Assembly (NCBI GenBank): GCA_052246995.1
Contig: JBQPWD010000003.1
Coordinates: forward strand, 1 to 64,000
Length of the DNA stretch: 64,000 bases
DNA from: Candidatus Bathyarchaeota archaeon
GTDB taxonomy: Archaea > Thermoproteota > Bathyarchaeia > Hecatellales > Hecatellaceae
Direction of reading: 5' to 3'
Shown: piece by piece, positions 1-13,545 of the stretch
How positions within the stretch are numbered: the first letter of the stretch is position 1
Layout of the letters: each line of letters begins with the position of its first letter
Program-made: the position numbers and the translations under genes
The notes under the pieces: generated by a model
Told to the model about the DNA's origin: nothing
The model's database searches: none
What the model saw: the letters and a program-made list of their open reading frames with translations, nothing else

Positions 1-271
1 TATGTGTTGGAATACCATCAGAGTCAGATAGGTTTAAATATTTTTCAGCTACACCAAAAGCTGCACAAACAGCACCATAATTTTCAGGGTAAACTGTAAC
101 AACATCCATAGCCTTAAGAACAACATCCCCCAGTAACCAGTTGGCCATACACCAAGCTACAGGCTTACCCTCCTGCATAGCCTTAACACTATCCAAATAA
201 GACTGGTCAACCTTAGCCCTAAGTGGTCTCACTTTTTCCAAACGTTTAATAACGCTTTTCTTGCTAGACAA
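1..271 (-). CDS. 2-hydroxyacyl-CoA dehydratase / class I benzoyl-CoA reductase subunit family (HgdA/FldB/BcrB-like), N-terminal part, runs off the window
   Basis: Not in the ORF track. Manual translation from TTG at 271 (GGAGG upstream): MSSKKSVIKRLEKVRPLRAKVDQSYLDSVKAMQEGKPVAWCMANWLLGDVVLKAMDVVTVYPENYGAVCAAFGVAEKYLNLSDSDGIPTH. GKPVAW...AMD...YPENY..CAA is typical of the HGD-D family. Confidence 0.8.
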   Translation of the reverse strand, partial: MSSKKSVIKRLEKVRPLRAKVDQSYLDSVKAMQEGKPVAWCMANWLLGDVVLKAMDVVTVYPENYGAVCAAFGVAEKYLNLSDSDGIPTH

Positions 272-411
272 TGCGAAAGAACCTCCAGTTCATTGAAGTT
301 TTTTAAGTTATTTTTTATGGTTTTAACTAATTTTTTAGCTTAACCACCAAATAATAAATATTATGTAGTATTTATATTTACATAAACGTTGCAGTTGTAG
401 GTGAATTTTTC

Positions 412-2455
412 TTGAAGCAATATGAAGAAAGGAAAATTAGAATTGGGGATAAGGAGGTTGTTGTTCCATTAGGTGAGCTTGAACTAAAACCCAATCCATC
501 AGAATACGTGGCTGAGGTTCTTGTTGAACAAGGGGTTGATGTTGCGTTTGGTGTTCACGGTGGAGATATATGGCAACTTACAGATGAAATGTCTAATGCT
601 GGAATAAAACTTGTAACTTTCAGGCATGAGCAGAATGCTGTTTACGCTGCTGAAGCATACTCTAAAGTTAGGAGGAGACCAGGTGTTGTTTATGTTGATA
701 TGGGCCCTGGTTTAGCCAATGCTGTTCCAGGTCTTCACCAAGCATGGATCAGTAGAAGCCCAATAGTACTTTTAGCTGGTGGAAGTATAGAGGAGCAAGA
801 TTATCTTTGGGCCACAATTCAAGAGTCGCATTCAACAGAGTTACTTCATAGTATATGTAAATGGACTGTTAGAGTTACCCATACAAACCAAGTTAAACAG
901 TTTTTAACCAGAGCGTTTAAAATGGCCATGACCTATCCATATGGGCCTGTATCTGTTGAATTAACCTTTTCGTTAAAAATTAAAAAAAGGGAGAAGGGTA
1001 AGGTATATCACACTGACGGCTGGTTTGGTATACTTGGCGAACATCATCTATACGTACCAAATTGGCTTGGTAGCAGAACAAAAGAGAATCTGCGAACTGG
1101 AGGCGGAGATCCGGAGCTTGTTGAAGAAGCTGTTAAGAGGATCTATGAAAGTAGAGGGCCAATCATTTTTGCTGGCGACGGTGTGCATTGGGCTGATGCT
1201 GGACCTGAAATTCAAGAATTTTGTGAACTTGCACAAGTTCCTGTAAGTGGTAGAAGACTTGGTAGGGGTTGTATACCTGAAGATCATCCACTACATTTCA
1301 GATCTAGAGCTATCCGACCTATTAGAGATGCTGTCGACCTTGTTGTAGTAGTTGGACATAAGGTTGGATTTTTTGATGGCTGGGGGTTCAGATTGGAAAA
1401 AAGTTATACAAATAAACGAGTCAACTGAGCATGTCGCAACATGGCTTCCAACTGAAACCCTGATTGTTGGTAATCCTAAACTTGTATTTAGGCAAATGAT
1501 TGAATATGTTAAACAACATAACCTTAAACCTCCACCAGAAAGAAAGGAATTTATTGAACTTGTTCAAAAAGCTGAAAAAGAACAGGAGAAAAGGCTTCAT
1601 GAAAAAGCTGAAAAATATAAGAGCTGTAAGCCGATACATTATGGTTGGCTTGCTAAAATTGTTTGGGATGTATGCGAAGAAAGGTATGGTGGTAGAAATT
1701 GCATAATTCAGGATGGTTATACAATCTCATACTATAGCCCACAATTTGTTAAAGCAAGATTCTCTGGACAATGTATGGACGCTGCTGAACATGCAGGTGT
1801 TGGTCATGGTATTGGTATGGCTATTGGTATATGTTTTGCCAACCCGGATTACGTGAAAAAATATCCTGTTGTTGTTATGATGGGTGATGCAGGTATGGGA
1901 AATAGCGGTATGGAGATAGAAACAGCACAAAGATACAATCTGCCAATAGTATACATTGTCACAAACAACGATGGATGGTTAACAGGATGCAAGTACATTG
2001 CATGGTCAACATCTAAAGGTGAAAAATATGATGCATTAGGTCCTCAAGATCAAACTCATCCTTACGGGCATACGGAGTTTATAAATGATTTAAGATATGA
2101 TAAGCTTTCAGAAGTTATTCCGGGAGTTTATGGTGAATGGGTTGTTGACCCAGCTGAGATTAAACCAGCAATAAATAGAGGGTTTAACGCAGCAGAAACA
2201 GGACATACCGCGGTAATAAATGTTGACATAGATAAACGTCTAGTAAACCCTGTACAGTGGACAACACCTTACGCATTCTGTTATGCACATATCCCATGGG
2301 AAAAACTTCCAAAAAGCGGTAAAGCCCTAAGAAGATTATGGTGTGGAGCCATAGCTAAAATGCTCACAGGCAAACCAGTATTTGACTTTGAAAAATGGGG
2401 CATTCCCGACCTGCCATTACCTGATCCATGGGATCCTCAAGAGGCAGAGCCTTAA
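412..2455 (+). CDS. Thiamine-diphosphate-dependent enzyme (acetolactate synthase / oxalyl-CoA decarboxylase / 2-hydroxyacyl-CoA lyase superfamily), split by a single frameshift into ORFs 412-1428 and 1352-2455
   Basis: ORF1 has the PYR domain (HEQNAVYAAEAY, GPGLAN) and the central domain. ORF2 has the ThDP motif GDAG...NN. Removing one G from GGGGG at 1382-1386 joins them as ...GFFDGWGSDWKKVIQINES... Confidence 0.85.
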
Positions 2456-2691
2456 AAACTTCAATTATCGTAGTAAATGCTGTATTCCCTATTGGCTTAC
2501 ATAGGCTTAGAATAAACTACAAAGCAAGATAAACCTTCATAGATGGGAAGTTGTTTCCCGAAAGCCATTCTAAGCTGATTAAAAGTGAAAAGGTTACATA
2601 CAAAGATTACCATTAACAGGTTAGGAAATAGAACTAATAGTAAAATATTCCTAAAAACACTTTTAGAAGATTAATTCTTGTTGGTGAGTTA

Positions 2692-3843
2692 ATGTTGAAT
2701 TTTGAGTTTAATGATGAGCAGAAGCTAATCAAAAAAGCTGCGGAGGAGTTTTGTCAGAAAGAAGTTTCACCGTATATTGACAAATGGTTGAAAGATAGAG
2801 TTTTTCCTAGGGAGCTTATGAAAAAATGTGCAAGTATAGGTTGGACTGGAATGAATATTAGGGAAGAATACGGGGGGGTACCTCTAGATAATGTTAGTCA
2901 AGGAATAATCACGGAGGTTATCGGTAGATACGAGGTTCCAACTCAAATATTTCTTTCACTACAGCTATCAAGAATGCTTAACTATGCAAACGAGAAGTGT
3001 AGAGAAAAGTTTGTTAAGAAGTTTTTAGGTGGAGAGTTAACTATCTGTGGAGGATTTACAGAGCCAGGTTGCGGTTCAGATTCTGTAGCCATAACTACTC
3101 GGGCTGTTAAAGAAGGTTCAGATTATGTGATAAACGGTGAAAAAGCCTGTATAAGCGGTCCACTATACTCGGATGTATTCATTATATCCGCTAAAACAGC
3201 TGAAATACCTGATAAACCCCATAAAGCCATCAGCCTAATAATTGTTGAAAAGGATAGGGAGGGTGTTGAAACTTACGAGCTTGAAACAATGGCTCCAGGT
3301 TTTAAAGGAGATTTTGGAGGAGTTAAGTTTGACAACGTTAGGGTTCCAGTAGCAAACCTTGTTGGAGAGGAGAATAAAGGCTTCTACCTTTTAATGAGCG
3401 AGTTTAACATTATAAGGGTTCATGTAGCGTTAATGGCTTTAGGTGCAGCTGAAAGGTCTGTTGAGGAAGCTATCGAGTATGCAAAACAAAGAAAAGCATT
3501 TGGCTTACCAATATCAAAATTTCAAGCTGTGAGTTTTAGGCTTGCTGAACACTGGACAAAAATTCAGGCTGCAAAACTTTTAGCCTATAAGGCTTTATGG
3601 CTTACAGATAAAGGTATGCCAAGCTGGGCTGAAGCTTCAGCAGCAAAATGGTATGGTTGTGAGGTTGCCTTTAACGCTGTAAACGATGCACTTCAAACTT
3701 ATGGTGCATACGGATACACTGCAGAGTATCCTTTAGAGCGTAGATTTAGAGCTATCCGAGGTGCATTAATAGGTGATGGAACTGGTGATATTCAGAAACT
3801 TGTAATTTCAAGAATACTGTTTGGAAGAGAATATTCTCCTTAA
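2692..3843 (+). CDS. Acyl-CoA dehydrogenase
   Basis: FTEPGCGSD, YVINGEK, RKAFG...FQAV, YGAYGY..EYPLER, IGDGT motifs; 383 aa. Confidence 0.95.
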   Translation: MLNFEFNDEQKLIKKAAEEFCQKEVSPYIDKWLKDRVFPRELMKKCASIGWTGMNIREEYGGVPLDNVSQGIITEVIGRYEVPTQIFLSLQLSRMLNYANEKCREKFVKKFLGGELTICGGFTEPGCGSDSVAITTRAVKEGSDYVINGEKACISGPLYSDVFIISAKTAEIPDKPHKAISLIIVEKDREGVETYELETMAPGFKGDFGGVKFDNVRVPVANLVGEENKGFYLLMSEFNIIRVHVALMALGAAERSVEEAIEYAKQRKAFGLPISKFQAVSFRLAEHWTKIQAAKLLAYKALWLTDKGMPSWAEASAAKWYGCEVAFNAVNDALQTYGAYGYTAEYPLERRFRAIRGALIGDGTGDIQKLVISRILFGREYSP

Positions 3844-3860
3844 AAAAATTAATTTTTTTA
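3841..3860. terminator. Probable bidirectional oligo-T terminator between convergent genes
   Basis: Perfect 20-bp palindrome TAAAAAAATTAATTTTTTTA spanning both stop codons, giving a T7 run on each strand. Confidence 0.6.
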
Positions 3861-5396
3861 AATTTTGTCTACAAACTCAACCTTCCTAAGCTTTTTATAG
3901 AATGCTACCCGTTCGTTGACAAAGTTTATTAATTCTTCAGCTGAAACCTTGCCTTTATAAACATCTTTTAAAACAACCTTTGCAAATGGTTTATGTCCAA
4001 CCTCAGGATCCCACTCTCCATCAATGTACGCATCTTTAACTGTTGGGTGTTGTAAAAGTATAACTTCAAGGTCTCTTGGGAAGATTGGATAAGCCTTATA
4101 CTTGAGGAACCTTTTCTTTAAACCTCTAAAGTAGAGTAAGCCGTTTTCATCCATCATTAAAAGATCTCCGGTATAAAGCCATCCATCCCTAATAGCCTTC
4201 CTAGTTTCCTCTGACTCCTTGTAACCCTTCATAATCCATGGAGATTTAACAATAAGTTCTCCAACCTCACCAGGTGGAAGCTCTTTTGTTCCCGTTTCTT
4301 TATCAACAATTTTAACATCAACATCAGGTAACGGGATACCGACAGAACCATAAACTCTAACATTTGGCGGTTGGGCTGTAACAACCAAACCCTCAGTTAA
4401 CCCGTAACCTTGAATAAGCGGAATGCCAACATCCTCAAAAAATGCTTTTTGAAGGTCCGGTGGAACAGGTGCTGCACCGGTTACACAAAGCATTAAACTT
4501 GGGACATCCTTCCTCTTTAAACCTTTCTTCAAGACAATGTCAAACATCATTGGTGGACCGGGCCAAAGATTAACATTGTAAGTTTTTATCAACTCAAGAG
4601 CTTTATCAACGTCAAACCTTTTCATTAAAACGATTGTTCCTCCAGCAATAACGGGTCCCGCTATTTCCATAACACCAAACAAGTGGGATAAAGGTATAGC
4701 AACAAGCGATACTACACCTTCCCTACGTCCATAAAATGCTGAAGCTGAAATCATAGCTGCAACTATACCATAATGGGTATGGTAAACTTCAAGTGTTCTA
4801 CCAACAATACCAGCATAGTGTGCAATTACCGCTACATCTTCACGTGGATTAATTTGAACATTTGGAGGTTTAGCTTCATATTTTGTTAAAACATCCATGT
4901 AACTTAAGGTATCTTTTCCACCCTCAACAACAATAGTGTTCTTTAACCCGTACCCATACTCGCTAAAAATCTTTTTTTCACGTTCCCAAACTTCAACATC
5001 TGTAAAAACTACCTTAGGTTTAGTCATATCAAAATGCATTTTTAAGTCTTCACTAATAGTTAAAGCATCAATAATGGCAACTCTAGCTCCAGCTTTAAGC
5101 CCTCCATAAAAACAAGTTATAAATTCAGGTCTGTTAAACATCATAACAGCTACAGGATCTCCCTTTCTAACACCCATATCCCAAATTGCAGCTGCAATCT
5201 TATTTGACTCCTCAGCAACCTTACCATAGGTAAATTTTCTACCATCCTCGTAAATTATAAGAGGCCTATCCGGCTTAGAGGATGCATGTTCATCAAGAAA
5301 CTTGTAAAGCGGCTTTTCAGGGTATGGTTGCAAAGTTTTAGGGACTTCTTTAGGCCATATCTTAAACCATAATTTTTCTTTAGTCAATTTTTTCAC
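3858..5396 (-). CDS. AMP-binding (acyl-CoA synthetase-like) protein with degenerate catalytic motifs
   Basis: ANL-family layout with QGYGLTE and GWLYTGD. The P-loop reads HYAGIVGRTLEV and the C-terminal Lys motif is absent. Confidence 0.85.
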   Translation of the reverse strand: MKKLTKEKLWFKIWPKEVPKTLQPYPEKPLYKFLDEHASSKPDRPLIIYEDGRKFTYGKVAEESNKIAAAIWDMGVRKGDPVAVMMFNRPEFITCFYGGLKAGARVAIIDALTISEDLKMHFDMTKPKVVFTDVEVWEREKKIFSEYGYGLKNTIVVEGGKDTLSYMDVLTKYEAKPPNVQINPREDVAVIAHYAGIVGRTLEVYHTHYGIVAAMISASAFYGRREGVVSLVAIPLSHLFGVMEIAGPVIAGGTIVLMKRFDVDKALELIKTYNVNLWPGPPMMFDIVLKKGLKRKDVPSLMLCVTGAAPVPPDLQKAFFEDVGIPLIQGYGLTEGLVVTAQPPNVRVYGSVGIPLPDVDVKIVDKETGTKELPPGEVGELIVKSPWIMKGYKESEETRKAIRDGWLYTGDLLMMDENGLLYFRGLKKRFLKYKAYPIFPRDLEVILLQHPTVKDAYIDGEWDPEVGHKPFAKVVLKDVYKGKVSAEELINFVNERVAFYKKLRKVEFVDKI

Positions 5397-5520
5397 CTAA
5401 ACTTTATGTTTTCTTTATACTATTTACTCAATTTTTACATTTAATCCTTTACATAAATTTTAAACGTAAAAGATTTAAGTTCTTGAAATTTAAAGGTATA
5501 GTTTAAGGATTTAACGGAGG

Positions 5521-6000
5521 ATGTTTAAGTTGAGTGAAGTTAAAAGGTCTAATAAAAAGGCTATAGGTAAAACATATCCACCAGTTACCTATATAGTAGA
5601 TATTCCTGGTGTTAAGATTAGAGAATACGCTGAAGCTATTGGTGATAGAAACCCTCTTTATTTTGATGAGACCTATGCTAAAAAAGCTGGGTTTGATAGC
5701 ATTATTGCCCCCCCAACATTTGCAGCTATTTTTGCTCTTAGACCGTTAGCTCCTGCTCTTCAAGACCAAGATTTAGCCATAGACCTTGCAACAATGGTTC
5801 ATGGTGCACAAGAGTTTGAGTTTTACAGGCCTGTTAAACCTGGTGATAAGCTGACAATTAAACCTAGAATAGCAGACATTTACGAGAAGATGAGTAGAAG
5901 CGGTAGACCTATGGATTTTATTGTTATTGAAGCTGAAGTTGTGGATGAAAAAGGTGAAAAAGTTTTAACCGCAAGGTCTACTTTGATCTGTAGGAGGTGA
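5521..6000 (+). CDS. MaoC-like (FAS1-type N-terminal) hot-dog dehydratase subunit
   Basis: IREYAEAIGDRNPLY, IAPPTF, VHGAQEFEF.RPV.PGD. Confidence 0.85.
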   Translation: MFKLSEVKRSNKKAIGKTYPPVTYIVDIPGVKIREYAEAIGDRNPLYFDETYAKKAGFDSIIAPPTFAAIFALRPLAPALQDQDLAIDLATMVHGAQEFEFYRPVKPGDKLTIKPRIADIYEKMSRSGRPMDFIVIEAEVVDEKGEKVLTARSTLICRR

Positions 6001-6007
6001 AAATTTT

Positions 6008-6445
6008 TTGAGTAAAAAAGTCGCTTATTTTGAAGATGTTAAGGTTGGTGACGAGATAAGTTCAACAAACCCCCCAATTACAAGAGTTAACATAGCAATG
6101 TATGCTGGTGCTTCAGGAGACTTTAACCCTATTCATGTAGATGAAGAGTTTGCTAAAAATACTCCTCAAAAAACTGTTATAGCTCACGGTATGATGACAA
6201 TGGGGTATATAGCACGTATGCTAACAGACTGGCTTCCAGATCCTACACATCTTAAAAGGTTAAAGGTAGAATTTAGAGGCATGGTTTTCCCTGGTGATGC
6301 TATTACTTGTAAAGGTAAAATTATTGACAAATATCAGAAAGATAAGAAAAGTTATGTTAAACTTGAAGTTTGGGCTGAAAATCAAAGAGGAGAAAAGGTT
6401 GCTGTAGGTGAAGCTGAAGCAGTACTACCATCAAAAAAATGTTAA
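6008..6445 (+). CDS. MaoC family (R)-specific enoyl-CoA hydratase/dehydratase, catalytic subunit
   Basis: Hydratase-2 motif YAGASGDFNPIHVD...IAHGM. Confidence 0.9.
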   Translation: MSKKVAYFEDVKVGDEISSTNPPITRVNIAMYAGASGDFNPIHVDEEFAKNTPQKTVIAHGMMTMGYIARMLTDWLPDPTHLKRLKVEFRGMVFPGDAITCKGKIIDKYQKDKKSYVKLEVWAENQRGEKVAVGEAEAVLPSKKC

Positions 6446-6446
6446 C

Positions 6447-8087
6447 CTAGGTTTTTACACCCACCTTTTTCTTTTCTTTTTCAATAAACTCTCTCCTTAA
6501 AACTTTTCCTGCAAGACTTCTAGGAATTAATGGTACAAACTCAACTTCACAAATTTTCTTGTAACCTGCAACTTTACTATTAACCCATTTTAACAATTCC
6601 TCCGCAAGTTTAGATGAAGCTTCATATCCAGGTTTTAATGCTACATATGCTTTAGGTACTTCAACTTTTTCAGGATCCGGCTTAGGTACAACCGCACAAT
6701 CAAAAACTGCTGGATGCTCCAGCAGAATAGATTCAAGCTCAGCTGGAGCTATGGTAAACCCCATACATTTAATAATTTCCTTCTTTCTTTCGATAATGTA
6801 GACATACCCATCCTCATCCATTTTTGCAAGGTCTCCCGTAAGAAACCACCCATCAGGTGTTAAAACTTTAGCGGTTTCCTCAGGTCTCTTCCAGTAACCC
6901 TTCATAACTTGAGGTCCGCGGATTGCAAGTTCCCCCACCTCTCCTGCTGGAAGTTCCTTTGTTGGATCATCAGGGTCAACAATTTTCTCTTCAGTATCTG
7001 GAAATGGAGGTCCAACTGATTCAAGTTTTATTTGTATTTTTGGATTTGAGTTTGTTACTGGTGAAGTTTCAGACAACCCATAACCTTGGGTTACCGTTAC
7101 ACCTGTTAATTTTTCAAATTCCTTTGCAACCTCAACCATTATTGGTACCGCACCATTATTAACAAACTTTAAAGATGATATGTCATACTTTTTAAGAAGT
7201 TCAGGATTTTTAACGTAGAAGCTTATAACAGGCATAACTGTAGCAACGGCGTTAACTCTATATTTTTGAATCAACTCAAGCCACTCAACAGGATCAAACC
7301 TTTTCTGTATAACTATTTGACCTCCCCCAAGTACTGAAGCATTTAAACACACAGTCATACCATAGCTGTGGTAGAGTGGAAGATGAACTAAAGTTACATT
7401 TTCTTCATCATAAAGCCCCCAAGCAATAGCGCTGAATAGCGCAACTTGAAAAGCATTAGATACAAGATTATAGTGGGTAAGCATGCAACCTTTAGGCAGG
7501 CCTGTTGTTCCTGCAGTATACTGTAAAGCTGCAATATCCTCTTTAGGGTTTATTTCAACTTTTGGTGGAGTTGGCGGATAGTTTTTAAGCATTTCGTTAA
7601 AAAGGTAAGTTCCAGGAAACTTTTTCTCACCGGTAACAATTATATGTTTTAATCTTGGAAGTTCATTTTTAATATTCTCTATTATGGGATAAAGTTCTCC
7701 GTCAACAATTAAAGCCACAGCCTCTGAATCATCAAGCTGATGCTTTGCATCTTTTTCCCTAAATGATGGATTTAAAGCTGTAACCGTTGCACCAATCTTT
7801 AAGATACCATAAAAGGCTATAACAAACTCCGGAGAATTCCACAAAAATATGCCTACAGTATTTCCCTTCCTAATTCCTAAAGATGCTAAGGCTGTTGCAA
7901 ACCTATCACTTAACTCGTCAACCTCGCCAAAAGTTAACTTGCTTGGATGAAGTATGAAAACTCTGTTAGGAGTTCTTTTTGCCGTATTTTTAAGTAGCTG
8001 AAAAACAGGAATTTCAGGATAGTAATCTCCAAACGAAGGTTGAACGTACACCCCAAATTTTTTTGCGGGCCAACCACCCTTAGGCAA
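6447..8087 (-). CDS. Long-chain-fatty-acid--CoA ligase (FadD-like)
   Basis: YTAGTTGLPKG, QGYGLSE, TGD, RKKEIIK, PRSLAGKVLRR. Confidence 0.92.
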   Translation of the reverse strand: MPKGGWPAKKFGVYVQPSFGDYYPEIPVFQLLKNTAKRTPNRVFILHPSKLTFGEVDELSDRFATALASLGIRKGNTVGIFLWNSPEFVIAFYGILKIGATVTALNPSFREKDAKHQLDDSEAVALIVDGELYPIIENIKNELPRLKHIIVTGEKKFPGTYLFNEMLKNYPPTPPKVEINPKEDIAALQYTAGTTGLPKGCMLTHYNLVSNAFQVALFSAIAWGLYDEENVTLVHLPLYHSYGMTVCLNASVLGGGQIVIQKRFDPVEWLELIQKYRVNAVATVMPVISFYVKNPELLKKYDISSLKFVNNGAVPIMVEVAKEFEKLTGVTVTQGYGLSETSPVTNSNPKIQIKLESVGPPFPDTEEKIVDPDDPTKELPAGEVGELAIRGPQVMKGYWKRPEETAKVLTPDGWFLTGDLAKMDEDGYVYIIERKKEIIKCMGFTIAPAELESILLEHPAVFDCAVVPKPDPEKVEVPKAYVALKPGYEASSKLAEELLKWVNSKVAGYKKICEVEFVPLIPRSLAGKVLRREFIEKEKKKVGVKT

Positions 8088-8269
8088 AATTCTTCCCTCC
8101 TAAACCTTTTTTTTACATTTTAAAACTTTTAGTTGTTAGTAGTATCTCACATATAAGAATGTTTTTATTGTTAATATTAAACATTTTTTAAATTTCTCGA
8201 TGAGAGGTAAGTTCCGCCATCACCAAAAAAATTAAATTGTTTTTGTTATGATTATAAAATTGTAAAATA

Positions 8270-9934
8270 ATGAGAACTGACATATGTTATCAAATGGTAG
8301 GGGTGGGGTTTTTGTCAACATATGAATACCAATTAACTTTAACAAAAATATTGGAGAGAGCAGTTAACGTTTTTCCAGATGTTGAGATTGTTTACCGTAA
8401 CATTTTCAGATATACATACGCTGACCTTTATAGAAGAATTCAAAAATTGGCTAACGTTCTTAAAAAACTTGGTGTTAGGGAAGGTGTTAAAATTGCAACT
8501 TTAGAGTTAAACACTCACAGACATCTTGAACTTTATTTTGCTGTTCCATGCATGGGTGCTGTTCTTCACATGGCTAACCCGAGACTTTCATTGGAAGAAA
8601 TAGCTTACATTCTTAACCATGCTGAAGACGAGGTTCTTTTTGTGAATGAAGCTTTTCTCCCGATAGTTGAAGCTATGAGTGATAAACTTAAAACTATAAA
8701 ATATTATGTGATAATGAGTGATAAAAAAGAAATTCCGGAAACAAAACTTAAACCAGTTTACGAGTATGAGGAACTTATCGACTCAGCCTCATCAACATAC
8801 GAGTTTCCAGAGTTAGGCGAGAACCAAGTAGCTACTATGGGTTACACAACTGGCACAACCGGTCTTCCTAAAGGTGTGTATTTTACCCATAGACAAAATG
8901 TTTTACACACGTTAAGTGTTGCTGCTGCACTAGGTTGCTACCTAAAAATAACCCACTATGACACGATTTTACATGTTGTTCCCATGTACCATGTCCACTC
9001 TTGGGGTATGCCGTACGTGGCGACAATGCTGGGGATGAAGCAAGTTTTTCCAGGTATGTTTGACCCTAAAATATTCCTTGAACTTGTAAAAAATGAGAAG
9101 GTAACATATACATGTATGGTTCCAACGGTTTTAGACATGATTTTAAAACATCCTGAAGTTGATAACTATAAACCCCATCTTGAAGGTTTAAATGTAATAA
9201 TTGGTGGTGCAGCTTTACCTAGAGCTCTTTGTGAGCGTGGTCGGAGCTACGGGATGAATGTTCTTGCTGCTTATGGTTTAAGTGAAACATGCCCTGTTTT
9301 AACCATAGCCTACCTTAAACGTAGCATGGTTGAATGGTCTAGAGAAGAAAAAATTGAAAAGTGGGTTAAAACAGGTTTACCCATACCCCTTGTAGACCTA
9401 AGAATTGTCGATTCTCAAGGTAATGATGTTAAAAAGGATGAGAAACAGATGGGTGAAATTGTTGTTAGAGCTCCATGGCTTACAAAAGAGTATTACAAAG
9501 ATCCTGAAAAAACAAAGGAGTTATGGGCTGGCGGATGGATGCATACAGGTGATATTGCTGTTTTAGACAAGGATGGGTATGTAAAAATTGTTGATAGAGC
9601 AAAAGATGTAGTTAAAAGCGGCGGAGAGTGGATTTCATCCTTAACCTTGGAAGATGTAATCCTTACTCATCCAGCCGTTTCGGAGGTTGCTGTTGTTGGT
9701 GTTGAACATGAAAGATGGGGTGAAAGACCCATTGCCTTGATAGTTTTAAAACCTGAATATAAGGACAAGGTTTCCGAGGATGATTTTAAAGAACATTTAA
9801 AAAAGTTTCCTGAAAAAATTCCAAGATGGTGGATGCCTGACAGGTTTATATTTGTTGAAAGTATACCTAAAACAAGCGTTGGAAAAATAGATAAAAAGGT
9901 TTTAAGGCAGAAATATAAGGGGTTTCTAAAGTAA
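8270..9934 (+). CDS. Fatty-acid--CoA ligase (AlkK/DmdB-like); the true start may be TTG near 8312
   Basis: YTTGTTGLPKG, YGLSET, HTGD, DRAKDVVKSGGEWISS, PKTSVGKIDKK. Confidence 0.92.
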   Translation: MRTDICYQMVGVGFLSTYEYQLTLTKILERAVNVFPDVEIVYRNIFRYTYADLYRRIQKLANVLKKLGVREGVKIATLELNTHRHLELYFAVPCMGAVLHMANPRLSLEEIAYILNHAEDEVLFVNEAFLPIVEAMSDKLKTIKYYVIMSDKKEIPETKLKPVYEYEELIDSASSTYEFPELGENQVATMGYTTGTTGLPKGVYFTHRQNVLHTLSVAAALGCYLKITHYDTILHVVPMYHVHSWGMPYVATMLGMKQVFPGMFDPKIFLELVKNEKVTYTCMVPTVLDMILKHPEVDNYKPHLEGLNVIIGGAALPRALCERGRSYGMNVLAAYGLSETCPVLTIAYLKRSMVEWSREEKIEKWVKTGLPIPLVDLRIVDSQGNDVKKDEKQMGEIVVRAPWLTKEYYKDPEKTKELWAGGWMHTGDIAVLDKDGYVKIVDRAKDVVKSGGEWISSLTLEDVILTHPAVSEVAVVGVEHERWGERPIALIVLKPEYKDKVSEDDFKEHLKKFPEKIPRWWMPDRFIFVESIPKTSVGKIDKKVLRQKYKGFLK

Positions 9935-10215: not shown

Positions 10216-13200
10216 GTGTATAGGTTGGCTCAACTGTTGTATGTGCGTTCATGTCCTCTCTGCGGCGGGGATGTTTCATCAGAAAGGCTTCTTGCAGGAT
10301 TACCTTGTGAAAAACATGGAGATACACGTATTCAGCTTTACGATGTAGAATGGATTTTTAAACCTTTCCACGTTAAACCTTGGAGTGCTCAAAGGCTTTG
10401 GGCTAGACGTTTTCTTAAGGAGGAAAGCTTTATTTTAACGGCTCCTACTGGTAGCGGTAAAACATTAGCTGGTATGGCTTTTGCTTTAGCCTCAGCCTTA
10501 AATGGAAAAAAATCTTTGATAATAGTTCCAACAGCAACCTTAGCTTACCAGGTTGAGTCAAGGTTGCGTGAGGTTGTTAAGGAGAGTTGTAGCCACGTTA
10601 AAATTGTTGGTTTGCATTCTCTTACAAAAAAGCCTGAAAAAAGTAGTGTTAAGGAATCCCAAATAATCATCTCAACCTCAATGTCTCTTATAAGGAATAG
10701 TGACATGGTTAAGGATGTTAAAGTAAACCTTGTCTTTGTTGATGATGTTGATGGTTTTCTAAGGAAAAGTAAGGCTATTGATACCGTTCTAGAGATGCTT
10801 GGTGTTACTGGAGAAATTTTAGGGGAAGCTGAAAAACTTTTAAGCCTTAAAAAGGTTGAAATGGAGCGGGATGAATTTTCCCATCAAATTTCAAAGTTAA
10901 GAGAATGGTTTAAAGGAAAACAAGTTATCATTTCAGGAGCAACCCAAACAGCAAAAAGAACTAAAAGGGTTCGCCTTTTAAACCTTCTTTTAGGTTTTGA
11001 TGTTAGTACTAAAGTTCTTGGTGTTAGAAACATTCTTGATGTTTATGTTATGGCTGAAGGAAATCTTTATACTCAGATTATAAACCTTGTTAAACTGCTT
11101 GGTCATGGGGGGCTTATATACATTCATGGTGTGGAAAATGCTGTAAGCTTGGCTGAAGCTTTAAGTAAAGCTGGAATTAAGGCTGAAGCTTACATTAAAG
11201 CCTCAAAAAAACTTTTTAACATGTTTATGGTTTCAGAACTTCATATTCTTGTTGGAACAGCAACTTCAAGAAGTTCGCTTGTTAGAGGTGTTGACCTTCC
11301 TGAAGCTGCACGTTACGCAATATTTGTTGGTGTTCCTAGGTATACTGTAAAGCTGACTTGGGACGAAATAACCCCTATGCGTGCACTTGTAGCAATAACA
11401 CATGTTCTTAAGTTTGCTAAAGAGACTGAAGAAAAAATTAGAGGCGGTAAACTTATAGATAATTTACGTAAAATTTCAAATCTTACAACGTTTGACATTG
11501 AAAAAATAAGAAAAGGTGAAGTTGCAGGTAACCGCTTCCTTGAGTATGCTAAGGGTGTTTTGGAGGAAAGTTTAAGTTTTTTAAAGGAGGTGGTTAAAAA
11601 ACCAGAAGTTTACGAGGGTTCAAGCTTAACTGAGGATGGACTTGTTTTTCCTGATGCTATTACCTATGTTCAAGCTTCAGGCAGAACTAGTAGGCTTACA
11701 GCTGGAGGTATGACTCAAGGTTTATCTATCCTAATAGTAGACGATGTAAAGGCTTTCAAGCTTTTAAAGGAAAACCTTGAAGCTCTTGATATAAACTTTA
11801 AACCTCTTTCTGAGGTAAGGTTAGAAAGCGTATTAGAAGAAATTGACAAAACTAGAAAACTTAAGGTCGGTGTTGATGTTGAAGCTAAAGCTAAATCACG
11901 CCTTGTTGTCGTTGAATCTCCAACTAAAGCTAGAACCATTACAAGCTTTTTCGGTAAACCTGTTAGAAGGATTGTTAACAATGTTCCAACATTTGAAGTT
12001 ATATCTCCTTTAGGATTGATGGTGATAATGCCCACTAAGGGACACTTTTACGACCTTGATATTGATAGAGAAAATTTTGGAGCTAAACTTTACAATGGAA
12101 ACTTCCTTGTTTACTTTAAACCTACAAGACTTGAGGTTGTGGAAGCTTTACGTAAACTTGCTCAGGATGTTGATGAAGTTTTTGTTGCAACAGACCCTGA
12201 TGCTGAAGGTGAAAAAATTGCTTGGGATGTAAAAGCTTTAGCCTCCCCGTTTAATCTAAACATTAAAAGAATTAGATATCATGAAGTTACAAAAAGAGCA
12301 ATAAATGAAGCTTTAACAAATCCTGAAAATTTTGACGAGAATCTTCTTCACGCTCAACTTTTAAGAAGGGTTGAAGATGCATGGATAGGTTTACCCTTGT
12401 CAATGATTATCCAAAAAAGTTTTGGTTATAGAAGACTTAGCGCAGGACGTGTTCAAACACCTGTTCTTGGATGGGTTGTTGAAAGAACAGAGTTAAATGC
12501 CAAAGAGAAGGTTGAGCTTATAAGCTTAACACTTGAAAACGGTTTTCAACTAACATTTAAAGCTCCCAAAGGAACTTTTTCAAAAATTAAGGAGAAGGGT
12601 GTTGTTGAAGTTACTAATGCCTGGAGAGAGGTTAGAGAGGTTTTTCCTCCACCACCATACATTACAAGTACGCTTTTAATTGATGCTGGTAAGCAACTTA
12701 AAATGGGAACAGATGAATCTATGAGAATTGCTCAAGAACTTTTTGAATCTGGGCTTATAACCTACCATAGAACAGATTCCACAATGGTTAGTGGTTTTGG
12801 TATAGAATTAGCTAAAAGATATCTTTCAAAGATGAATCTTGAGGGATACTTTGAGCCTAGATCTTGGGGTGGAGGGGCTGGTGCTCATGAATGTATCAGA
12901 CCTACAAGACCTTTAAATGCTGAGGAAGTTGAGGTTATGATTAAAAGTAGGCTTTTACCATCACCAATACCTTTAGGACGTAGACATTTTTCCCTTTACA
13001 ACCTCATATTTAAAAGGTTTGTTGCAAGCCAGATGAAACCTGCAAAAATAGAATATTTAAACTTAAAGGTTAACGCTGGAGGTTTTATAATAGAAAATCT
13101 CAGTTTTCCTGTTAAAATTTTGGAGCCAGGATTTATAACGGTTATGCATTTAGAAGTTGTTAAAGTTTTTCCTGATAAAGGGATTTATAAGGTTGTTGAA

Positions 13201-13545
13201 GGTAAACGTAAGCTTATTGGTGTTGAACCGTTGTATAATGAAGCTGACCTTATAAGACTTATGAAGGAAAAAGGTATAGGACGACCAAGTACCTATGCTG
13301 TGATAATCGAAAAGTTGAAAGATAGATATTACGTTACAAAGCTAAAAGGTGGACAGCTTGTAGCTACCAAGTTAGGTAAAATGGCCTACGAATTTCTAAT
13401 TTCCCAGTATAGGGATCTTCTTTCTGAGGAAAGAACTAGAATGCTTTATGCTGATATGGATGCTGTTGAACGTGGAGAAGTTAGGCTTGTGGGTGCCATA
13501 AAAAAGCTTCATGAGGAGGTTTCATGTCTTTTAAGTCTTAGGTAA
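10216..13545 (+). CDS. rgy: Reverse gyrase
   Basis: N-terminal Zn finger (CPLC...CEKH). SF2 helicase-like motifs APTGSGKT, DDVD, YVQASGRTSR are fused to topoisomerase IA motifs VESPTKA, DPDAEGE, GRVQTP, ITYHRTDS, GIGRPSTY. Confidence 0.97.
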   Translation: MYRLAQLLYVRSCPLCGGDVSSERLLAGLPCEKHGDTRIQLYDVEWIFKPFHVKPWSAQRLWARRFLKEESFILTAPTGSGKTLAGMAFALASALNGKKSLIIVPTATLAYQVESRLREVVKESCSHVKIVGLHSLTKKPEKSSVKESQIIISTSMSLIRNSDMVKDVKVNLVFVDDVDGFLRKSKAIDTVLEMLGVTGEILGEAEKLLSLKKVEMERDEFSHQISKLREWFKGKQVIISGATQTAKRTKRVRLLNLLLGFDVSTKVLGVRNILDVYVMAEGNLYTQIINLVKLLGHGGLIYIHGVENAVSLAEALSKAGIKAEAYIKASKKLFNMFMVSELHILVGTATSRSSLVRGVDLPEAARYAIFVGVPRYTVKLTWDEITPMRALVAITHVLKFAKETEEKIRGGKLIDNLRKISNLTTFDIEKIRKGEVAGNRFLEYAKGVLEESLSFLKEVVKKPEVYEGSSLTEDGLVFPDAITYVQASGRTSRLTAGGMTQGLSILIVDDVKAFKLLKENLEALDINFKPLSEVRLESVLEEIDKTRKLKVGVDVEAKAKSRLVVVESPTKARTITSFFGKPVRRIVNNVPTFEVISPLGLMVIMPTKGHFYDLDIDRENFGAKLYNGNFLVYFKPTRLEVVEALRKLAQDVDEVFVATDPDAEGEKIAWDVKALASPFNLNIKRIRYHEVTKRAINEALTNPENFDENLLHAQLLRRVEDAWIGLPLSMIIQKSFGYRRLSAGRVQTPVLGWVVERTELNAKEKVELISLTLENGFQLTFKAPKGTFSKIKEKGVVEVTNAWREVREVFPPPPYITSTLLIDAGKQLKMGTDESMRIAQELFESGLITYHRTDSTMVSGFGIELAKRYLSKMNLEGYFEPRSWGGGAGAHECIRPTRPLNAEEVEVMIKSRLLPSPIPLGRRHFSLYNLIFKRFVASQMKPAKIEYLNLKVNAGGFIIENLSFPVKILEPGFITVMHLEVVKVFPDKGIYKVVEGKRKLIGVEPLYNEADLIRLMKEKGIGRPSTYAVIIEKLKDRYYVTKLKGGQLVATKLGKMAYEFLISQYRDLLSEERTRMLYADMDAVERGEVRLVGAIKKLHEEVSCLLSLR

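Follow-up and report, generated by a model that had tools for sequence, protein, structure and literature searches.

A divergent HGD/ThDP gene pair in Bathyarchaeia as an archaeal, modular variant of the bacterial ketone-inducible TDP enzyme system

Introduction

The closest described relatives of the system presented here come from sulfate-reducing bacteria. Four of them (Desulfococcus biacutus, Desulfosarcina cetonica, Desulfotruncus (Desulfotomaculum) arcticus, and Desulfoscipio geothermicus) induce a thiamine diphosphate (ThDP, or TDP)-dependent "acetolactate synthase" on acetone, butanone, isopropanol, and pentanones, and this TDP enzyme has been proposed to formylate the ketone, yielding 2-hydroxyisobutyryl-CoA (PMC7888143, PMC8084838). 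In the same bacteria, ketones co-induce subunits of the family that comprises 2-hydroxyacyl-CoA dehydratases and benzoyl-CoA reductases (HGD/BCR), to which those studies assign no role (PMC7888143, PMC8084838). The activation of acetone without carboxylation in sulfate reducers has been an open problem for decades, and the system described in this study, encoded at the left end of a 64-kb stretch of a Bathyarchaeia genome, provides a lever on it.

This stretch, referred to as the window, covers the initial 64 kb of contig C3 (JBQPWD010000003.1) of the Candidatus Bathyarchaeota archaeon genome G000 (GCA_052246995.1), which comprises 1.53 Mb in 17 contigs. It opens with a truncated second copy of an HGD-type Fe-S alpha subunit gene (HGDa'), divergent from the gene for a ThDP enzyme. 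Our best account, for and against which we judge the chances evenly balanced, is that window 2-2455 is a two-gene satellite module, consisting of a paralogous HGD/BCR-family alpha subunit divergent from an intact ThDP enzyme, and that it serves a ketone-type C1 route. The system is an archaeal, modular variant of a known, mechanistically unsolved bacterial one. The original prediction for this DNA had seen in the first 10 kb a single self-contained cluster that could encode anaerobic alpha-oxidation or, in reverse, C1 elongation, and had added that its author knew of no such pathway in archaea. A limited literature search bears out this last point for archaea, as it retrieved no report of the system in Bathyarchaeia or archaea; on the bacterial side, homologous clusters are in print. 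The same search found no publication pairing a 2-hydroxyacyl-CoA lyase (HACL) with a 2-hydroxyacyl-CoA dehydratase, and nothing later than 2021 that settles the TDP reaction.

The ThDP enzyme of the window

According to its full-length homology, the ThDP enzyme of the window belongs to the ~650-aa ketone-inducible "TDP enzyme" family. It is 38-44% identical over ~680 columns to the enzymes of four loci (L038, L040, L058, and L061) from Desulfosarcina cetonica, a Desulfococcus species, Desulfotruncus arcticus, and Desulfoscipio geothermicus, with 44% for the Desulfoscipio and Desulfotruncus enzymes. Judged by gene order, not by accession numbers, L038 agrees with the locus tags published for D. 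arcticum, and L061 shows the D. biacutus/D. cetonica arrangement. A database search identified 403 relatives among the candidates scored; the best of them are ~645-650 aa long, are named only "thiamine pyrophosphate-binding protein", and originate from Dehalococcoidia, Chloroflexota, Desulfobacterales, and Bacillota. In a tree of 83 rows, from which cluster-0 proteins shorter than 560 aa (17 of 93) were omitted, the window enzyme and the enzymes of these four loci all fall within one 77-row family with an SH-aLRT support of 100. As a side observation, seven database relatives from Deltaproteobacteria-type metagenome-assembled genomes (MAGs) are ~1090-aa fusions of a DUF362 domain (PF04015) with the ThDP enzyme (P0076, P0088, P0090, P0091, P0093, P0095, and P0099), and such fusions also appear as the open reading frames L028_855_4133 and L030_8585_11944.

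In the assembly, the gene is split into two overlapping half-frames by an additional base, and comparison with the intact 679-aa paralog of the same genome (ThDP679) places the frame change at a five-G run at ~1382-1387. This extra G is absent at 1382 from the three covering runs (X1, X3, and X5, one contig each), which are public assemblies of three hot-spring runs from two studies, while a fourth, the RNA-library run X6, has no cover there. Contigs of X6 do lie on window 1-127, 444-709, 2055-2479, and 2743-3000; contigs do not demonstrate transcription and the library possibly contains DNA, so that X6 was not used as evidence of expression, and no meaning attaches to the parts of the window that it leaves uncovered. 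Read through with an X at the break, the window gene encodes 680 aa with no stop, and its ortholog in the same-genus sister genome G001 is an open frame of 683 aa. The motifs of the window protein are intact: HEQ lies at residue 72 and GDAG(X)NN at 491, so that both the ThDP-binding motif and the cofactor-activating Glu are present. Identity amounts to 91% with the G001 ortholog, 91.6% with the database protein P0002, and 59% with ThDP679. At window position 2449 (third-last codon of the gene), all four public runs show an A instead of the G found here, a change that is synonymous by manual reading. This difference and the indel at 1382 indicate that the assembly departs slightly from the sampled populations, and the split is read as an assembly error or a strain variant of a gene that is intact in the population.

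The original prediction had described the enzyme as of the HACL/OXC type, and the nearest solved relatives agree with this, both by sequence and by fold. The structures compared were AcHACL (7pt1), RuHACL (6xn8), HACS (8vz*), and OXC (2q27/2c31). In phmmer searches with ThDP679, the best solved relatives are HACS, OXC, and HACL (E 5e-50 to 2e-36), followed by benzaldehyde lyase near 1e-30 and, among the entries listed, by acetolactate synthase (ALS/AHAS) at 2.6e-25 or worse. In BLASTP, the window protein reaches 197 bits with an HACS-like protein (28% identity, residues 26-604), 146 bits with E. coli OXC, and 109-129 bits with three ALS/Gcl proteins, whose alignments end near residue 519. A Foldseek search with an AlphaFold2 model of a 92% ortholog (pLDDT 88.2, pTM 0.90) gave only HACL, HACS, and OXC among the rows listed through rank 35, with modest TM-scores of 0.44-0.58. 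No cyclohexane-1,2-dione hydrolase was present among the 60 best-listed of the 145 PDB sequence matches. The tree had as references only three E. coli proteins (OXC, IlvI, and Gcl), the ALS-like gene of the genome itself, and the HACS-like locus protein. In this tree, IlvI, Gcl, and the ALS-like gene, encoded on contig C1, form a group apart from the ThDP family. True ALS was rejected on the phmmer ranking, the TIGR00118 score, and the tree, as had been predicted.

The assignment to HACL or OXC proper does not hold, and several of the reasons weigh against an HACL-like chemistry as well. ThDP679 stays far under the curated NCBIfam cut-offs for OXC (NF006721, 194/557 bits; TIGR03254, 181/739) and HACL (NF058623, 188/600), and both halves of the window enzyme score lower than ThDP679 on the OXC and HACL models. 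The acid/base Glu of AcHACL, E493, is replaced by S529 in ThDP679 and by Gly in the window enzyme and the family consensus, at a site that adjoins a ~15-aa family-specific insertion at the AcHACL E493 helix; OXC likewise has no Glu equivalent to E493, according to PMC8760513. By a tentative manual mapping, none of the seven CoA contacts named for AcHACL in the same study (Q255, R273, S274, R362, R417, D561, and K564) is identical; Q255 aligns to the invariant Arg of an RRxxR motif, and the others fall in weakly aligned regions. Finally, the fork of the tree that joins OXC, the HACS-like pair, and the family, separate from the IlvI/Gcl/ALS-like group, is unresolved and does not place the family as sister to OXC/HACS rather than ALS. 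We conclude that the window enzyme is a member of a distinct family related to HACL and OXC, belonging to neither and separate from ALS.

HGD-type subunits and the main cluster

Contig C3 begins at window base 1, within HGDa', and only the N-terminal 90 aa of this subunit are encoded. The fragment has no Pfam match of its own; it aligns to residues 4-91 of an intact 450-aa HGD-D protein (HGDa450) encoded at C3:93575-94927, with 91% protein and 94% DNA identity. Public contigs reach left of base 1 by 755 nt (X3) and 1086 nt (X1), and the X1 contig at this end has twice the depth of its neighbours, as expected of a collapsed two-copy gene. C2:1-131 matches the main-copy alpha gene at its 3' end with 99% identity, and the 3' end of HGDa' is probably found at C2:2-121. 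The most economical reading, which is unproven, is an assembly break within an alpha gene that was recently duplicated or gene-converted, the order being C2 (reverse complement), gap, C3. Beyond the start of C2 lie a histone-deacetylase-family gene, a ribonucleotide reductase, and other housekeeping genes, so that under this join neither a partner subunit nor an activator would follow HGDa'. Synteny lends the join no support, as the histone-deacetylase-family gene on the C2 side shares only 38% identity with its counterpart next to the G001 ortholog.

The original prediction had pointed to the DNA just left of the window for a partner subunit and an activator. They are encoded instead ~94 kb downstream, where a beta subunit and two ATPases follow HGDa450 in a full main set of genes that closely matches the bacterial ketone clusters. 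This cluster encodes, in order, an LLM-class oxidoreductase, the alpha subunit of an ADP-forming acyl-CoA synthetase, a family III CoA-transferase, the HGD-D proteins of 450 and 394 aa, two BcrAD/BadFG ATPases (280 and 265 aa), a thiolase, a 3-hydroxyacyl-CoA dehydrogenase, and the paralog ThDP739. Next in order are another LLM oxidoreductase, a radical-SAM protein carrying 2Fe-2S and 4Fe-4S domains, ThDP679, a further, small radical-SAM protein, an HMGL-like protein, and an AMP-forming ligase. Both LLM proteins match best the F420-dependent alcohol dehydrogenase 1rhc (E 1.7e-57 and 2.9e-53), with F420 glucose-6-phosphate dehydrogenases slightly behind. The CoA-transferase has formyl-CoA transferase as its best match (240 bits against a 442-bit cut-off), and both ATPases pass the acyl-CoA dehydratase activase domain model TIGR00241 (271 and 206 bits against 125). 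A family III CoA-transferase upstream of alpha and beta subunits, followed by the activase, is the operon layout of the had/fld fermentative dehydratases. Two B12-dependent acyl-CoA mutases of the genome are encoded far from the ThDP clusters (C2:215.3-217.4 kb and C1:34.8-37.9 kb, one of them with a MeaB-like gene) and are 42-53% identical to the mutases of the bacterial ketone clusters.

Sequence comparison suggests that this type of alpha subunit is specific to the ThDP context. With the alpha subunits linked to ThDP genes in Desulfotruncus, Desulfobacterium, and Peptococcaceae, HGDa450 shares 46-49% identity; the value drops to 33-36% for their Chloroflexota counterparts and to just 25-27% for a third HGD cluster of the same genome, on C1. 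Among five ThDP-bearing bacterial genomes with no HGD gene in the flank, four carry a 46-48% identical HGDa ortholog elsewhere, and a genome search of Peptococcaceae CEB3 with HGDa450 gave no match. The C1 cluster (C1:225132-228368; L008:3132-6368) is a distant HGD-D pair with one BcrAD ATPase, in the classic three-gene dehydratase-like layout and 25-28% identical to the main-cluster subunits.

Conservation of the gene neighbourhood

A scan of species-representative genomes confirmed 467 relatives of the ThDP enzyme, of which 78 loci were kept; their 979 open reading frames were clustered and named by Pfam. HGD and ACAD genes were counted within 10 kb and the families in general within the available flank; only 52 of the loci span at least 12 kb. 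Under these terms, HGD-D and thiolase genes each accompany the family in 22 of the 78 loci, SDR, AMP-forming ligase, and radical-SAM-ferredoxin genes in 21 each, HMGL-like genes in 18, B12 mutases in 16, enoyl-CoA hydratases in 14, family III CoA-transferases in 13, ACADs (acyl-CoA dehydrogenases) in 11, BcrAD ATPases in 10, and formyltransferases in 8. The linkage between ThDP and HGD genes recurs in Bathyarchaeia, Chloroflexota, Thermodesulfobacteriota, Bacillota, and Latescibacterota, and HGD-bearing rows (locus rows only) appear in every part of the tree: 2/5 in clade A, 8/24 in B, 7/30 in C, and 3/8 in the basal part. The divergent arrangement of the window is found in G001 (L010) and, with extra genes in between, in L012, L015, L016, L018, L031, and L044.

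Two Dehalococcoidia/Chloroflexi MAGs (L079:9884-20162 and L080:4657-14931) encode on one strand a long ThDP enzyme, an OYE-type reductase, two HGD subunits, an HACS-like ThDP enzyme, two ATPases, and a CoA-transferase, followed in L079 by an HMGL-like gene. The short ThDP protein of these operons matches the Dehalococcoidia HACS 8vzj with an E value of 9e-91, a gene of the characterised HACS type inside an HGD/ATPase operon. This arrangement and the conserved linkage support the idea, already put forward in the original prediction, that an HACL-type ThDP enzyme and an HGD enzyme would meet at a 2-hydroxyacyl-CoA; it is the picture of a self-contained cluster that falls.

Other neighbours of the family deserve mention. 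A formyltransferase (Formyl_trans_N/C) is encoded beside the ThDP gene in L012, L015, L016, L044, L054, L055, L060, and L078, and in Chloroflexota it lies between an Frc-like CoA-transferase and the HGD genes; it is a possible hint to the formyl donor. In two clade A loci from Desulfobacteraceae (L013 and L017), a glycyl-radical enzyme (PFL-like plus Gly_radical, 805 aa) adjoins the ThDP gene, together with an Amidohydro_2 protein, a TetR regulator, OYE-type reductases, and SDRs. No homolog of this glycyl-radical enzyme is present in G000.

Sister genome and distribution in archaea

Forty related genomes were searched, 13 from the same family and the rest from the same class. Members of the ThDP family (E ≤ 1e-30) were found in G001 only. 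The HGDa type was likewise restricted to G001 (77-81% identity), with weaker HGD-D matches (27-34%) in three other genomes. The two therefore occur together in 2 of the 41 genomes when G000 is included. This narrow distribution, added to the bacterial sister groups in the tree, suggests that this genus may have acquired the system.

G001 carries four ThDP, three HGDa, and one HGDb copies, and two of its alpha copies stand alone directly beside ThDP paralogs (L010 and L018); G000 has two alpha copies and one beta. In G001, the HGDa'-ThDP' pair is located at a contig end, next to a NUDIX gene, two histone-deacetylase-family genes, and orthologs of G000 C3:59.7-67 kb. From these data, we infer that alpha/ThDP pairs may be substrate-specific modules that share one beta subunit and one ATPase pair.

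The ACAD/ligase/MaoC block and other features of the window

All the genes that had been predicted for the first 10 kb are present, that is, an HGD-family gene divergent from a ThDP gene, an ACAD, ligases, and a MaoC pair (Table 1). They constitute two separate modules, 2-2455 (HGDa'/ThDP) and 2692-9934 (ACAD/ligase/MaoC), and not the single cluster that had been envisaged: with alternating strands and at least five transcription units, the region is not one operon, and the second block is separable in G001. That genome keeps ACAD, ligase, MaoC, MaoC, ligase, and reverse gyrase in order, with 88-92% protein identity, and has in this block neither ligase 3 nor a ThDP gene; the genes upstream of its ACAD are orthologs of G000 contig C5. 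The junction between ThDP and ACAD in G000 is real, since public contigs span it, but it is not kept between the two available archaeal genomes. Conservation of the neighbourhood, which the original prediction had proposed to test, applies to the ThDP-HGD linkage and is lost, in the sister genome, for the linkage of ThDP with ACAD, ligases, and MaoC. The ACAD/ligase/MaoC genes are a separable, independent block of beta-oxidation type, outside the conserved unit. Nevertheless, the block may take over the product of the pathway, as the proximity of ACAD and ThDP genes in 11 of the 78 loci makes a functional hand-over possible. The best NCBIfam match of the ACAD is the acryloyl-CoA reductase AcrC (279 bits against a 640-bit cut-off), and the MaoC pair matches HadA and HadB below their cut-offs.

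Table 1. Position of the features in the window and of the related genes outside it.
Feature	Position	Strand	Remarks
HGDa' (second HGD-D alpha-type Fe-S subunit copy)	2..271	-	N-terminal 90 aa; runs off contig start
Divergent intergenic region HGDa'/ThDP	272..411		140 bp; from open reading frame coordinates
ThDP enzyme	412..2455	+	680 aa with one extra G discounted; Pfam TPP_enzyme_N, M, C
ThDP half-frames	412..1428 and 1352..2455	+	overlapping open reading frames; TPP_enzyme_N, M in the first, TPP_enzyme_C in the second
G-run with one-base insertion splitting the ThDP frame	1382..1387	+	
ACAD / enoyl-CoA reductase type flavoprotein	2692..3843	+	four ACAD Pfam domains
AMP-forming acyl-CoA ligase 1	3858..5396	-	Pfam AMP-binding, AMP-binding_C
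MaoC/hot-dog pair, HadA/HadB-like	5521..6000 and 6008..6445	+	159 and 145 aa; Pfam FAS1_DH_region, MaoC_dehydratas
AMP-forming acyl-CoA ligase 2	6447..8087	-	
AMP-forming acyl-CoA ligase 3	8270..9934	+	NCBIfam PRK06187, 627 bits, above the 476-bit cut-off
Reverse gyrase	10216..13545	+	helicase, Toprim, and topoisomerase domains, zinc finger
Main ketone-cluster-like set	C3:89.8-111.5 kb (C3:89807-111536)		loci L005, L006, L009; outside the window
HGD beta and two ATPases	C3:94951-97833		outside the window

The reverse gyrase next to the block, and the fact that the runs holding window DNA are hot-spring metagenomes, fit a (hyper)thermophile. As had been noted for its first part, the whole window is devoid of thiolase and 3-hydroxyacyl-CoA dehydrogenase genes (tblastn of C3:1-64000 with the genome's own copies, E ≤ 1e-8), and the nearest copies detected by the same search are those at C3:97.9-100.1 kb. 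Elsewhere in the genome, contig-end comparison revealed periodic repeats with a spacing of ~75 nt shared by the 3' end of C4 and C6:8.1-8.4 and 15.4-15.9 kb, and a long internal repeat series in the 5' region of C14; these may be CRISPR arrays or tandem repeats.

Proposed mechanism and alternative explanations

In the ketone-type C1 route, the ThDP enzyme would interconvert a carbonyl compound (ketone or aldehyde) plus a formyl-level C1 unit with a 2-hydroxyacyl-CoA, making the C-C bond or reversibly breaking it. The alpha' subunit, working with the one beta subunit and the ATPases of the main cluster 94 kb away, would then transform the 2-hydroxyacyl-CoA into an enoyl-CoA, which could enter hydratase, dehydrogenase, and thiolase steps or be handed to the ACAD. 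What the data establish is the family of each protein, the conserved linkage, the intactness of the ThDP gene, and where the partners are encoded; the substrate, the C1 donor, the reaction direction, and a dehydratase function are deduced from these. The ketone-consuming physiology known for the family argues for the condensation of a carbonyl with a C1 unit instead of alpha-oxidation, and the Adf-like (LLM-class) dehydrogenases of the main cluster are consistent with a pathway fed by secondary alcohols and ketones. A wider version of this scheme, which we put forward tentatively and consider doubtful, is that the genome encodes a natural C1-elongation (or alpha-scission) unit in which the Fe-S enzyme, as an ATP-activated radical enzyme, acts directly on the 2-hydroxyacyl-CoA made by the ThDP enzyme, each ThDP paralog has its own substrate-specific alpha subunit, and all share the beta subunit and the ATPase pair.

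Several points, in addition to the active-site and tree data given above, speak against this route. In the bacterial studies, the TDP reaction could not be demonstrated with any C1 donor tried, and no member of the family is known to be active in vitro (PMC7888143, PMC8084838); extracts of the bacterial relatives showed no activity with formyl-CoA or oxalyl-CoA (PMC7888143). G000 contains no homolog of the formyltransferase or of the 126-aa partner known from bacterial clusters. The window enzyme lies in clade A of the tree (7 rows), and the acetone-induced enzymes in a 30-row clade, to which ThDP739 is sister with an SH-aLRT of 94. The alpha gene of the window is a fragment in this assembly, and neither a beta subunit nor an activator gene adjoins it. 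The module idea is drawn from copy numbers and adjacency only. Moreover, the nearest solved relative of the beta subunit is BzdN (1.2e-39), ahead of the double-cubane protein (2.2e-29) and HadC (1.4e-28), and the presence of two distinct ATPase genes recalls benzoyl-CoA reductases.

These last two findings lead to an alternative that we consider rather unlikely, namely that the HGD enzyme belongs not with the dehydratases but with the ATP-driven low-potential reductases (BCR or double-cubane type) and would deliver electrons for carbonyl activation by the ThDP enzyme or would reduce a CoA ester, the lone alpha copies then being substrate-specific catalytic subunits. The four-gene layout of the main cluster agrees with it, the best NCBIfam match of the beta subunit is the double-cubane reductase (208 bits, under its 350-bit cut-off), and the alpha subunit is almost equally near to HadB, MbdO, and BzdO (8.5e-22, 1.3e-18, and 3.3e-18); with alpha so placed and beta nearest BzdN, sequence leaves the choice between dehydratase and ATP-driven reductase unsettled. 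In addition, PMC8084838 reports that the HGD subunits are acetone-induced even where a B12 mutase handles 2-hydroxyisobutyryl-CoA. No curated BCR model reaches its cut-off (BzdO 86/449 bits, BzdN 146/454, BzdQ 185/380), the same being true of the Had models (HadB 106/750 bits, HadC 149/700). In favour of a dehydratase, both ATPases pass the activase domain model, the main cluster has the CoA-transferase upstream of alpha and beta as in the had/fld operons, and the HACS-like gene inside the L079/L080 operons points to a 2-hydroxyacyl-CoA substrate.

The alpha-oxidation preferred by the original prediction, in which a ligase, the ACAD, C2 hydration by the HGD enzyme, and a ThDP lyase would release a C(n-1) aldehyde and formyl-CoA, appears improbable. 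The ACAD and three ligases do adjoin the ThDP gene across a junction spanned by public contigs, ACADs recur near the family, an Frc-like CoA-transferase is present in the main cluster, and the reactions of HACL are reversible according to PMC8760513. Nevertheless, in G001 the block by the reverse gyrase is preceded by unrelated genes, with the HGDa'-ThDP' pair elsewhere, no aldehyde-oxidising gene was seen beside the HGDa'/ThDP pair, and the MaoC pair points to ordinary 3-hydration; the physiological data for the family all concern ketone consumption, the C1-adding direction (PMC7888143, PMC8084838). It is even less probable that the two genes are unrelated neighbours, an amino-acid-fermentation dehydratase and a ThDP enzyme with another role, such as 2-oxoacid chemistry. 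The fermentative-type gene order of the main cluster and the acryloyl-CoA reductase match of the ACAD, below cut-off, would suit this explanation, against which stand the recurrence of the linkage in several phyla, the joint presence of both families in only 2 of 41 related genomes, and their co-induction by ketones in four bacteria, as described in PMC7888143 and PMC8084838. It is hardly credible that the ThDP gene should encode a genuine acetolactate synthase or be a dead pseudogene: its relatives are annotated as 'acetolactate synthase large subunit-like' and its frame is broken in this assembly, but TIGR00118 gives 185 bits (cut-off 538), E. coli IlvI groups with another gene of the genome, the ALS-like one on C1, none of the three covering public assemblies has the frameshift, and the ortholog is intact.

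If the wider C1-elongation unit exists, it would provide the enzymology that anaerobic ketone activation still lacks, in a thermophilic archaeon with proteins that are perhaps easier to handle, and would represent a natural counterpart of the engineered formyl-CoA elongation pathways. Irrespective of this, testable constraints are added to the problem: the ThDP family is accompanied by one particular HGD type in several phyla, additional alpha subunits are paired with single ThDP paralogs, a genuine HACS gene occurs within an HGD operon, and Frc-like CoA-transferases and formyltransferases recur nearby. The thermophilic orthologs are practical candidates for biochemical and structural work, and a natural route combining an HACL with a radical dehydratase would interest those engineering C1 assimilation.

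Comparison with known systems

The bacterial ketone clusters share with G000 the same ThDP family, with full-length homology, and the main cluster of G000 repeats their two HGD/BCR subunits, BcrAD ATPases, HMGL-like protein, PFL-activase-like radical-SAM protein, AMP-forming ligase, thiolase, and 3-hydroxyacyl-CoA dehydrogenase. Contrary to them, the host is an archaeon, a thermophilic member of Bathyarchaeia; its main cluster has no B12 mutase, MeaB, formyltransferase, or 126-aa partner, and it adds F420-type alcohol dehydrogenases and extra lone alpha/ThDP modules. The window enzyme falls in clade A, and its gene is not followed by the hyp126 and radical-SAM-ferredoxin genes; only ThDP739 is sister to the induced clade.

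Compared to HACL and OXC, the three-domain ThDP fold is common to both and the active-site Gln (AcHACL Q128) is conserved in the window family, whose proposed reaction would be that of HACL in reverse. However, this family is ~100 aa longer, with a ~40-aa low-confidence insert at ~190-230 and a conserved C-terminal tail of ~70 aa. The HGD-type enzyme resembles HadBC/HadI and BzdNOPQ in its HGD-D alpha and beta subunits and BcrAD-type ATPases. It differs from HadBC-type dehydratases in the two ATPase genes, and from both in the existence of several alpha copies per single beta and in that it reaches no curated equivalog cut-off.

The FORCE design of engineered C1 elongation is said to make use of a 2-hydroxyacyl-CoA dehydratase. 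Its conversion of formyl-CoA and a carbonyl into a 2-hydroxyacyl-CoA and then an acyl-CoA, as presented in PMC9118988, follows the logic suggested by the gene pair of the window. FORCE was assembled from unrelated sources, whereas the pairing found here is natural and known from genes alone.

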